DNA from: Escherichia phage Turkey3
DNA length: 64,000 nt
Sequence record: PQ471515.1
Strand: one strand, 5' to 3'
In this document: piece after piece, positions 8,856 through 10,675 of the stretch
How the letters are laid out: the number at the start of each line of letters is the position of its first letter
Position numbering within the stretch: the stretch's first letter is position 1
Made by a program: the position numbers and the translations under genes
The notes under the pieces: generated by a model
What the model saw: the letters and a program-made list of their open reading frames with translations, nothing else
The model's database searches: none
Told to the model about the DNA's origin: nothing

Positions 8856-9326
8856 ATGAGTTTTTCAAGAGCATTAGAAATTGCTAAGTTAATTGATTTA
8901 TGTAAAAAGGAAATAGTACTCAATCAACTCAATGGGTATCTATTCAAGGAAGGTAAAGCTTATTGTCGAATGATATACGATGACAGTAGTGAGTACATTC
9001 ACATGTATGAAGAAAACTTAGATTCTTCTGAAACAACACTCAATGGGTGTGATGTTAATTTGGAAGATAATTACATGTACTTCTGTCGTGATGCTGATAT
9101 TTTAATACAAGATTCTGACATTATAACTGGTGCAGCAGAGCAACATCTCCCGTATTCAGTACTGGATAATGACTGGGGAAGTGAAGAGTTCTACTTCCAG
9201 CAGAATACTATCTACGAGGAAGATGTACTTGACAAGCTTGTCATTCTGTGGTACTTTAATAATACCGATTGTCCTAGCTTCTATCTGGACTTGGATCTAC
9301 TACGAGTTATTAAAGAGGATATATGA
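8856..9326 (+). CDS. FQ-S array paralog (MSLxSAL / GPW-EEYYFQ subfamily)
   Basis: MSFSRALEIAKLID...NDWGSEEFYFQQNTIYEEDVLDKLVILWYF. Confidence 0.6.
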   Translation: MSFSRALEIAKLIDLCKKEIVLNQLNGYLFKEGKAYCRMIYDDSSEYIHMYEENLDSSETTLNGCDVNLEDNYMYFCRDADILIQDSDIITGAAEQHLPYSVLDNDWGSEEFYFQQNTIYEEDVLDKLVILWYFNNTDCPSFYLDLDLLRVIKEDI

Positions 9327-9763
9327 GTTTAGCAAGTGCACTTAAACTGGCACACAAAATACATCACTTCCACGATAACATAAAAAGTGGTTTCTATGGT
9401 GATAAAGTAAGTGCATTTGGTAATGAGTATTATCTATCAGGTATAAAGACATACTCTGATGATATTTTACTTATGGGCCATGATAAAGACAATACTATAC
9501 AGTACTCTTCATGTAGTCAATATACTAGTTTTTTTGTATATATTCCAGGTACTAAGATTACTTTTGACACATCAAATACACCTGTTGACTTCGGGGTACT
9601 TGATGGGCCGTGGGGTACTGAAGAGTATTACTTCCAACAGAGTCTTATTTTTAACCAAGAAATGCTTGATTCCTTGGTTGTTTTGTGGTACTTTAAGGAA
9701 TTGAATTTTGAACCCTTCTTCCTTGACTGGGGAGCATGTGAATATTTAAGTACAGGGGATTAG
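9323..9763 (+). CDS. FQ-S array paralog (MSLxSAL subfamily)
   Basis: MSLASALKLAHKIH...GPWGTEEYYFQQSLIFNQEMLDSLVVLWYF. Confidence 0.6.
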   Translation: MSLASALKLAHKIHHFHDNIKSGFYGDKVSAFGNEYYLSGIKTYSDDILLMGHDKDNTIQYSSCSQYTSFFVYIPGTKITFDTSNTPVDFGVLDGPWGTEEYYFQQSLIFNQEMLDSLVVLWYFKELNFEPFFLDWGACEYLSTGD

Positions 9764-9765
9764 TA

Positions 9766-10254
9766 ATGTCATTACAAAGTGCATTGAAAGAAGCAAAGAA
9801 GATTCATGAGTACATGATTATGGTACAAGAAGGTTCAGTGCCTGGTGTGTATAAAACATCTGATACTGAATTTTTTGTAAAAGACCGCGACGATTATGAT
9901 GAGTCAGAGATACATGCAGAAACGTTAGTACTACACACTGATACGGGTGATACTGATGACTGTGAATATCATATGTACAATCAATACATTAGTTATTGTA
10001 GAGATGAAGATATTATAATTTACAGCCCTGATTACGATGATTATGACACAATTATTCCGTATTCAGTACTGGAAGGTCCGTGGGACAGTGAGGAATATTA
10101 CTTCCAGAACAGTACTGTGTACAATGAAGAAGAATTAGATGTTATTGTAATTATGTGGTACTTTAAAAGTATTGGTTCTGGTAGTTTCTATTTCGATTAT
10201 GAATACGTAGAGAATACTGTAGGGGAAGATAATGTCATTACGAAGTGCTCTTGA
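9766..10254 (+). CDS. FQ-S array paralog (MSLxSAL subfamily)
   Basis: MSLQSALKEAKKIH...GPWDSEEYYFQNSTVYNEEELDVIVIMWYF. Confidence 0.6.
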   Translation: MSLQSALKEAKKIHEYMIMVQEGSVPGVYKTSDTEFFVKDRDDYDESEIHAETLVLHTDTGDTDDCEYHMYNQYISYCRDEDIIIYSPDYDDYDTIIPYSVLEGPWDSEEYYFQNSTVYNEEELDVIVIMWYFKSIGSGSFYFDYEYVENTVGEDNVITKCS

Positions 10255-10675
10255 TAAAGCAAAAGAACTACAGGCATATATTGAAGATATTAAGGCTGGG
10301 AAGTTCGAAGAAGTATACAAAGCCGAGAATGGTAACTACTACAAGGATTGTGATTTTGCTACAACTACAGTTATTCTTGGGTTGAATTCCAAAAGTCCCG
10401 CAGATTTTTCACAATACAATCCAGATGCAGAATTTATCAGTTATGCTTATGGTGGTGAAATCCGTTTTTATAATCGCAGCAGACCTTTAAAATTGAACTT
10501 TGAAGTACTGAAAGGTCCGTGGGATAGTGAAGAGTATTACTTTCAGAATAGTACTTTGTATGATAATGAAGTACTAGATACTTTAGTTATTATGTGGTAC
10601 TTTAAAAGTATTGATAGCACAAGATTTTATTTGGATTATGAATATGTACGTGAAGCATATAAGGGTAAACGATGA
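10232..10675 (+). CDS. FQ-S array paralog (MSLxSAL subfamily)
   Basis: MSLRSALDKAKELQ...GPWDSEEYYFQNSTLYDNEVLDTLVIMWYF. Confidence 0.6.
   Translation: MSLRSALDKAKELQAYIEDIKAGKFEEVYKAENGNYYKDCDFATTTVILGLNSKSPADFSQYNPDAEFISYAYGGEIRFYNRSRPLKLNFEVLKGPWDSEEYYFQNSTLYDNEVLDTLVIMWYFKSIDSTRFYLDYEYVREAYKGKR

Follow-up and report, generated by a model that had tools for sequence, protein, structure and literature searches.

Four small genes (g1 to g4; positions 8856–10675, + strand) stand in tandem in a 64-kb stretch of Escherichia phage Turkey3 (record PQ471515.1; 64,000 nucleotides (nt), the whole of which is called the window here). They belong to a tandem family of ancient origin that is under purifying selection; its helical core is constrained, and its beta-sheet differs between paralogs. 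This evolutionary description is well supported. The joint reading, in which g1 to g4 are an old PHROG 9317 subfamily of a lineage-specific family of about 40 genes and the encoded proteins are early, non-structural and interact with the host, is held with confidence slightly above even. The family is referred to below by its motif, FQxS (x, any residue). The principal features are as follows.

8856..9326, + strand: g1, 156 amino acids (aa), isoelectric point (pI) 4.06, net charge −21; phrog_9317, E 3.9e-55.
9195–9206, + strand: motif variant FQQN of g1, with Asn in place of Ser.
9323..9763, + strand: g2, 146 aa; phrog_9317, E 2.1e-55; FQQS at 9632–9643.
9766..10254, + strand: g3, 162 aa, pI 4.05, net charge −28; phrog_9317, E 8.6e-63; FQNS at 10102–10113.
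10232..10675, + strand: g4, 147 aa; phrog_9317, E 1.8e-49; FQNS at 10541–10552.
8256..8854, + strand: g0 slot, held in the window by a short FQxS member (8256–8672) and a 61-aa open reading frame (ORF; 8669–8854).
10986–11429 and 11426–11872, + strand: two next-door relatives with the same architecture; phrog_12674, 26–36% identical to g1–g4.
35..26281, + strand: array of small acidic proteins with the motif [ST]EEx[LYFI]FQxS[LT][VIL][YFW], delimited by an iterated hidden Markov model (HMM) and by the motif.

Tandem copies and the age of their duplication

All four genes match the phrog_9317 HMM (PHROGs v4) end to end (E 1.8e-49 to 8.6e-63, profile positions 1–154/160 or more); their similarity is therefore far beyond chance. 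Common to them are an N-terminus MS[FL]xSAL, a core ..W[GD][ST]EE[FY]YFQ[QN][SN] and a tail L[VI][IV][LM]WYF. Tandem paralogy, as proposed in an earlier note made from the letters of the window, holds: the genes are all on the + strand and abut or overlap (the g2 start overlaps the g1 stop as ATGA, and g4 overlaps the g3 3' end by 23 nt). Their description as near-identical does not hold, pairwise protein identity being 30–41%. Nor is the DNA nearly identical where this had been claimed, in the C-terminal parts of g3 and g4: positions 10065–10131 and 10504–10570 are 83.6% identical (11/67 mismatches). The best gap-free repeat between copies, 10065–10209 against 10504–10648, is 80% identical over 145 nt; the repeats of the remaining pairs are 63–72% identical. 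In the best-conserved 45 codons of g3 and g4, 10 of the 34 same-residue codons differ synonymously.

The proportion of synonymous differences between paralogs (pS, Nei-Gojobori) is 0.46–0.85 in every region, the conserved C-terminal part included, values at which such differences are saturated or nearly so. Phages fEgEco12, PBECO4, 121Q and A4 have syntenic orthologs of all four genes. A neighbour-joining tree of these four phages and the window contains separate g1, g2, g3 and g4 orthogroups. Copies group with their positional orthologs and not with their neighbours; the duplications thus predate the split of the compared Asteriusvirus lineages. The only closer pair in the tree is g0 with g3. 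Neither high nucleotide identity between copies nor clustering of the copies together, the marks of recent tandem duplication, is found. Near-saturated synonymous sites, a syntenic ortholog of each copy in other phages and a tree that separates the copies by position show that the quadruplication is old, and not very recent as had been supposed.

Three to five copies are found by tblastn in each of 35 phage records, all of them from Asteriusvirus-like phages of Escherichia or Salmonella; the divergent phage JNE01 carries three copies, all distant. Copy number varies at the locus (3–5 among related phages), as had been suspected, but what is gained or lost are copies that diverged long ago. Directly upstream of g1, PBECO4, 121Q, phAPEC6 and A4 have a fifth phrog_9317 member, g0 (160–164 aa), which is a sister of g3 (59–62% identity). 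Phage fEgEco12, like the window, has other genes in the g0 slot.

Between paralogs, conservation (mean pairwise identity in 10-residue blocks) is 0.62 at residues 1–10, 0.10–0.28 at residues 11–100 and 0.40–0.70 at residues 101–150. Conserved ends and a variable middle, as first described, are thus confirmed at this level. The statement that the middle differs completely is too strong: it still aligns at 18–27% identity, and the same fold is predicted for it. Among orthologs divergence is uniform along the gene, the outcome that the earlier note had named as its refutation, with block identities of 0.76–0.93 in the middle and 0.84–0.93 at the ends. The ratio of nonsynonymous to synonymous rates (dN/dS) between orthologs is below 1 in every region (middle 0.07–0.65, whole gene 0.06–0.35). 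Middle segments are 95–100% identical to those of fEgEco12, and those of g1–g3 are 85–96% identical to PBECO4 and 121Q. Over the whole protein, g1 orthologs are 93–96% identical in fEgEco12 and PBECO4 and 86% in 121Q; for the g4 orthologs of PBECO4 and 121Q identity drops to 68%.

Targeted diversification of a binding surface, the mechanism offered for the pattern, is argued against, because the ortholog middle matches the ends in conservation and dN/dS is below 1 in each region; it is further opposed by the lack of a template-like repeat and by the predicted folded state of the middle. No near-identical template/variable repeat pair is present in 8000–12500. Reverse transcriptase has no Pfam match among the ten large ORFs scanned in 26,955–59,417 (genome about 375 kb); six of these ORFs match other families (RNA ligase, polynucleotide kinase/phosphatase (PNKP), DNA ligase, PhoH/PIN, phosphoesterase) and four have no match. 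The likeness to target genes of diversity-generating retroelements (DGR) is superficial, being limited to a conserved frame with a variable segment. The variable part of g1–g4 is a whole beta-sheet of about 80 residues, whereas in DGR targets it is a short C-terminal patch; unlike those targets, g1–g4 have neither a template/variable repeat pair nor segment variation among orthologs. A weaker form of the idea survives. A conserved scaffold whose predicted sheet has diverged between old paralogs would be compatible with different binding specificities.

Synonymous divergence from PBECO4 is about 0.13–0.15 in g1 and g2 and about 0.63–0.66 in g3 and g4. Because of this jump between g2 and g3, a recombination breakpoint near 9763 is suggested, with mosaic exchange inside the cluster. 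The 147-aa FQxS member at 10986–11429 has a 102-aa gene at the same position in PBECO4, 121Q and phAPEC6 (phAPEC6 21230–21538); its best tblastn match in phAPEC6 is 26% identical and lies on the neighbouring gene. It is another case of gene replacement inside the array.

The FQxS array and its predicted fold

The array HMM, seeded with six neighbouring genes and iterated on the ORFs of the window, converges on 37 members (E 1e-9 to 1e-28). Five further array ORFs carry the motif without an HMM match. Exact FQxS is present in 35 of 58 genes in positions 1–26,800 and in 1 of 73 in the rest of the window; in shuffled proteins the mean is 1.3 and the maximum 6. The motif always stands at 50–78% of protein length. 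The array is cut at the left edge of the window, since that of fEgEco12 starts about 3 kb further upstream. Its proteins are 100–210 aa, mostly acidic (family median pI 4.8), single-domain and cytoplasmic. PHROGs splits them into separate families (9317, 12674, 15629, 30978, 38467 and others); 15204–15686 also matches phrog_12674. The PHROG entries for phrog_9317 and phrog_12674 list neither function nor structure, nor do they record the FQxS core common to these proteins or treat the array as one unit.

The motif logo reads [ST]-E-E-x-[LYFI]-F-Q-x-S-[LT]-[VIL]-[YFW]-[DN]. Phe and Gln are invariant and Ser nearly invariant across 37–43 sequences at 13–19% mean identity. The exact array motif is present in g2, g3 and g4; FQxN occurs in three genes, g1 (FQQN) among them. 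Ser is encoded by AGY in 18 cases and by TCN in 17, and Phe and Gln each use both codons. Because both Ser codon families are used, selection acts on the protein and not on the DNA; a conserved DNA element in place of a protein motif was rejected on the same codon usage. Two further explanations of the motif were considered. The sequence E-x-x-Y-F-Q-[GS] of some members resembles the site of the tobacco etch virus (TEV) protease; a cleavage site was rejected, as many different residues follow the Gln and the motif is part of a helix modelled at a predicted local distance difference test (pLDDT) value of about 96. Q-x-S-L-x-F of the short subfamily has the form of a beta-clamp-binding motif; a clamp-binding role is disfavoured, the motif being helical and embedded in the domain.

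The AlphaFold2 model of g3 (alignment of 43 orthologs and paralogs) has a mean pLDDT of 86.9 and a predicted template modelling score (pTM) of 0.83. It consists of a helix (residues 3–22), seven short strands between 28 and 97, a short helix (99–103), the motif helix (109–117, with F113-Q114-N-S116), a second long helix (121–135), a strand (141–144) and a terminal helix (146–156). The variable middle is modelled as beta-sheet (pLDDT 81–94) except for loop 41–50, and not as a surface insert. A 146-aa protein of 121Q, presumed from its length to be orthologous to g2, superposes in its BFVD model on the full-length g3 model (template modelling scores 0.78/0.86, 28% identity), which indicates, at the level of predicted structures, that paralogs share their fold through the middle. 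The model of the short member 7608–7964 (118 aa; pLDDT 88.5, pTM 0.83) has five strands, an FQES helix, a long helix and a strand; terminal helices are absent and the order of elements is as in g3. Structure matches in BFVD (Foldseek) are limited to uncharacterised proteins of 121Q, RaK2, GAP32, Serratia BF and an Erwinia jumbo phage. The confident models have no match among solved structures, and sequence profiles have none among PDB chains. Pfam, NCBIfam and PADLOC scans of ten family members give nothing significant.

The array is confined to a narrow group of phages. Megablast of 8000–12500 matches nothing but jumbo phages of Escherichia coli and Salmonella that belong to the PBECO4/121Q group (Asteriusvirus, 310–386 kb); the best match is fEgEco12 (96.8% DNA identity, full query covered), the g3 protein is 100% identical to its counterpart in vB_Ec-M-J, and the matched genes are annotated as hypothetical protein in every record. 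Phage phAPEC6 has 40 HMM-positive members in a syntenic block, gp466c–gp404c. Klebsiella phage Muenster, of a different genus (Alcyoneusvirus), has 25 HMM-positive ORFs and 31 FQxS ORFs in a 40-kb locus; tblastn also reaches RaK2 and K64-1. Among 1.84 billion cluster representatives, the 37-member profile retrieves just 147 proteins at E ≤ 1e-3. Each is 55–210 aa long, almost all match in a single stretch, and none has an added domain. In the 10 clusters checked, every named member belongs to an Asteriusvirus phage or to an E. coli assembly containing contigs of about 355 kb, except for two tiny partial proteins labelled Actinomadura adrarensis (contigs of 513 and 790 bp). These two fall in clusters otherwise composed of E. 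coli jumbo-phage proteins; that assembly is probably contaminated with phage reads.

Position in the genome is conserved. The direct terminal repeat of fEgEco12 is 20,993 bp long and experimentally supported, according to PMC13070987; the array of this phage starts at about 27.3 kb, a few kilobases past that repeat. The HMM-positive members of Muenster extend from record position 20,938 to about 49,100 and start less than 1 kb after a 20,030-bp terminal repeat. Positional orthologs in the arrays of the window and phAPEC6 are 26–100% identical, mostly 55–90%. For comparison, most of about 34 related records have a DNA ligase that is 95–99% identical (22 records) and an RNA ligase 1 that is 90–95% identical (24 records). 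Judged from these sequence identities, the array diverges much faster than neighbouring enzymes.

No description of the FQxS family was found in literature searches on PBECO4, 121Q, Asteriusvirus, Alcyoneusvirus, RaK2 and jumbo-phage paralogs. In the consulted parts of the RaK2, CBB, phAPEC6, fEgEco12 and Sharanji papers and of a jumbo-phage survey, paralogs are treated in general terms or not mentioned, and neither the family nor its motif, its array or its place beside the terminal repeat is described. Published lineage-specific paralog expansions of jumbo phages are alike in having many tandem copies of a small domain, in one clade, unannotated and in a non-structural part of the genome; the FQxS domain differs from them in having no zinc-ribbon or other known fold.

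Probable role and rival explanations

In the preferred reading, g1–g4 are part of a family that in Rak2-like jumbo phages comprises about 40 genes, closely packed in tandem on one strand shortly after the left direct terminal repeat. Their products would share a predicted core: a beta-sheet of 5–7 strands, the FQxS helix with Glu-Glu ahead of the motif, another long helix and a last strand, to which the g1–g4 subfamily adds an N-terminal and a C-terminal helix. Duplications occurred before the split of the compared Asteriusvirus lineages, and each copy has been under purifying selection since. The helical core is constrained in all copies, and the sheet is constrained within each orthogroup and different between paralogs. 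The array proteins would be made early from host-type promoters and act, as non-structural proteins, in host takeover or counter-defence. The sheet surface of each paralog may bind a different target, with the FQxS helix as a common scaffold or partner site. We infer this function from position, acidity, absence from the virion, fast divergence and variation in gene content.

Expression signals are candidates. Neighbouring genes of the array touch or overlap, with ATGA at the junctions; long polycistronic units are thereby implied. The following were read from the sequence.

Gap 18991..19077, + strand: candidate terminator-like hairpin (AGACCC-TTAT-GGGTCT followed by a T run).
Gap 18991..19077, after the hairpin, + strand: candidate sigma-70-like promoter (TTTACA, 17 nt, TGTTATAAT).
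Gaps 3055–3091 and 15145–15203: similar promoter-like sequences, candidates judged by eye.

The virion proteome of phAPEC6 comprises 62 proteins, with none between gp347 and gp549 in Table 1 of PMC7247149. Array proteins gp404c–gp466c, including the orthologs of the g genes (gp438c–gp442c), are accordingly missing from that table.

Several points weigh against the preferred reading. The expression timing, binding and targets assigned to the array proteins are putative, and the invariant Gln with Ser could be a catalytic or ligand site. All three promoter-like gaps were judged by eye; a generic promoter and terminator scan of 6000–13000 gave no enrichment (36 sites, 38.6 expected), and literature searches found no transcriptome of an Asteriusvirus or Alcyoneusvirus. 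The AlphaFold2 alignments are shallow (37–43 sequences, mostly paralogs). Alignment of the g1–g4 profile with short- and long-subfamily profiles by hhalign covers 19–28 columns round the motif at a probability of 35–55%, so the deepest links of the superfamily rest on the motif, the iterated HMM and the predicted order of elements. From these sequence and model comparisons, full-domain homology of the most distant members is likely.

The main alternative to a host-interaction role is a shared catalytic or ligand site, in which Gln and Ser with the preceding Glu-Glu would serve an enzyme or a small-molecule- or nucleotide-binding domain with different substrates for each paralog. Invariance of Phe and Gln and near-invariance of Ser at such low mean identity would fit this, as would the spacing of conserved polar residues by 3–4 positions on one helix and the presence of an ADP-ribosyltransferase gene in the Muenster array. 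The alternative is nevertheless rated unlikely: Pfam, NCBIfam and PADLOC give no match, solved structures include no relative, a single phage with about forty paralogous enzymes of 100–200 aa would be unusual, and Asn replaces Ser in g1 and two other members. Considerably less probable are virion components, that is, internal head or injected proteins of paralogous families as in phiKZ-like phages. Such families exist in other jumbo phages, e.g. phiKZ gp92–97 and gp162–163 (PMC12676376), and the array lies near a genome end; the absence of gp404c–gp466c from the 62-protein list in Table 1 of PMC7247149 speaks against it. Signal peptides and propeptides of the prohead-protease type were not seen either, though no search was aimed at them.

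The similarity of the ends of g1–g4 has rival explanations of its own. Concerted evolution, in which gene conversion between neighbours keeps the N- and C-terminal parts alike while the middle escapes, is given as little credence as a virion role. It draws on the lower C-terminal pS of g3 and g4 (0.52, against 0.84–0.85 in the rest of the pair) and on the location of the best DNA repeat (80% over 145 nt) in that same region. A pS of 0.52 is still about 0.9 substitutions per synonymous site, however; 10 of 34 same-residue codons differ synonymously in the best 45 codons, all other pairs have a C-terminal pS of 0.56–0.75, and the array Ser comes from two unrelated codon families, pointing to protein-level selection. 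Tracts of identical synonymous sites seen within a genome between paralogs and absent from sister-genome orthologs are not observed. A very recent quadruplication, with a DGR-like or cassette mechanism actively and selectively diversifying the middle so that a binding surface varies, has next to no probability left. It would account for the conserved ends and divergent middle of the paralogs and for copy numbers of 3–5 among related phages. Against it stand 30–41% protein identity, synonymous sites near saturation and orthologs of each copy in four other phages, together with a middle that is 76–93% conserved among orthologs, has dN/dS of 0.07–0.65 and is modelled as a folded sheet and not a loop; no template/variable repeat pair is present, and no reverse transcriptase match was obtained in the ten large ORFs, four of which lack any Pfam match. 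By comparison of ortholog sequences this account is already refuted.

A more specific form of the host-interaction reading is a modular arsenal. The [ST]EE..FQxS helix would dock all paralogs on one host or phage machine, and the sheets would capture different host proteins, e.g. defence effectors; the family would be an undescribed fold family making up about 6–7% of the genes of Rak2-like jumbo phages, and the content of the array would set the strains that a phage can overcome. This is speculative and a little less probable than the shared catalytic or ligand site.

The FQxS array is best classed among the lineage-specific multigene families of giant viruses and is notable for its size, conserved location and lack of a solved structural relative. 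Multigene families (MGF) of African swine fever virus (ASFV), terminal host-range families of poxviruses and blocks of small early accessory genes of T4 and T5 have a demonstrated role in host interaction. The array is like them in having tandem genes near a genome end, variation among isolates and faster divergence than core enzymes; it has no sequence or fold relationship to them, and for the array a host-interaction role is only inferred. About 80% of the genes in these 350–380-kb phages have no known function, and some of the phages are considered for therapy. One family covering about 40 hypothetical proteins turns them into a single testable unit with a motif, a confident model and a conserved position in at least two genera. 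If a role in host takeover or counter-defence is true, array content could help explain narrow and variable host ranges.

Neighbouring genes and minor observations

The window is AT-rich throughout (G + C 31–38%), and its + strand holds nearly all ORFs of at least 90 aa. No tRNA genes were found in the window, and an Rfam scan of the whole window gives no match. The block downstream of the array consists of genes for nucleic-acid repair and metabolism. The following have Pfam matches.

38326–39468: RNA ligase 1.
40291–41223: PNKP.
44604–59417 (block after the RNA ligase 1 and PNKP pair): two metallophosphoesterases within it.
47495–48913: ATP-dependent DNA ligase.
57978–59417: PIN-PhoH protein.

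RNA ligase 1 and PNKP (38326–41223) are a T4-like tRNA-repair pair. Two 285-aa ORFs at 26955 and 28990 were considered as paralogs; this was rejected. In Muenster, a putative ADP-ribosyltransferase gene (28853–29263) lies inside the FQxS array; no counterpart was noticed in the array of the window.

A called terminator-like hairpin at 11712–11731 falls within the coding sequence of the YFQGST motif of gene 11426–11872. Its Tyr-Phe codons (TACTTC) and Gly-Ser-Thr codons (GGAAGTACT) are nearly reverse-complementary, and the hairpin is most likely a coding coincidence. The intergenic gap 6505–6665, in a genome of about 33% G + C, has runs of nine G and of seven A together with GC-rich segments (CCCCGCCGCG); it has no Rfam match and adjoins the sole − strand ORF of at least 100 aa in the array region (6256–6564). 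Between the terminal repeat and the FQxS array of fEgEco12 (21,091–27,280) there are about 30 abutting + strand ORFs of 65–85 aa. The same pattern of tiny ORFs is present in phAPEC6 (gp489c–gp467c); in both phages these ORFs seem to form another tandem family, one of very small proteins.

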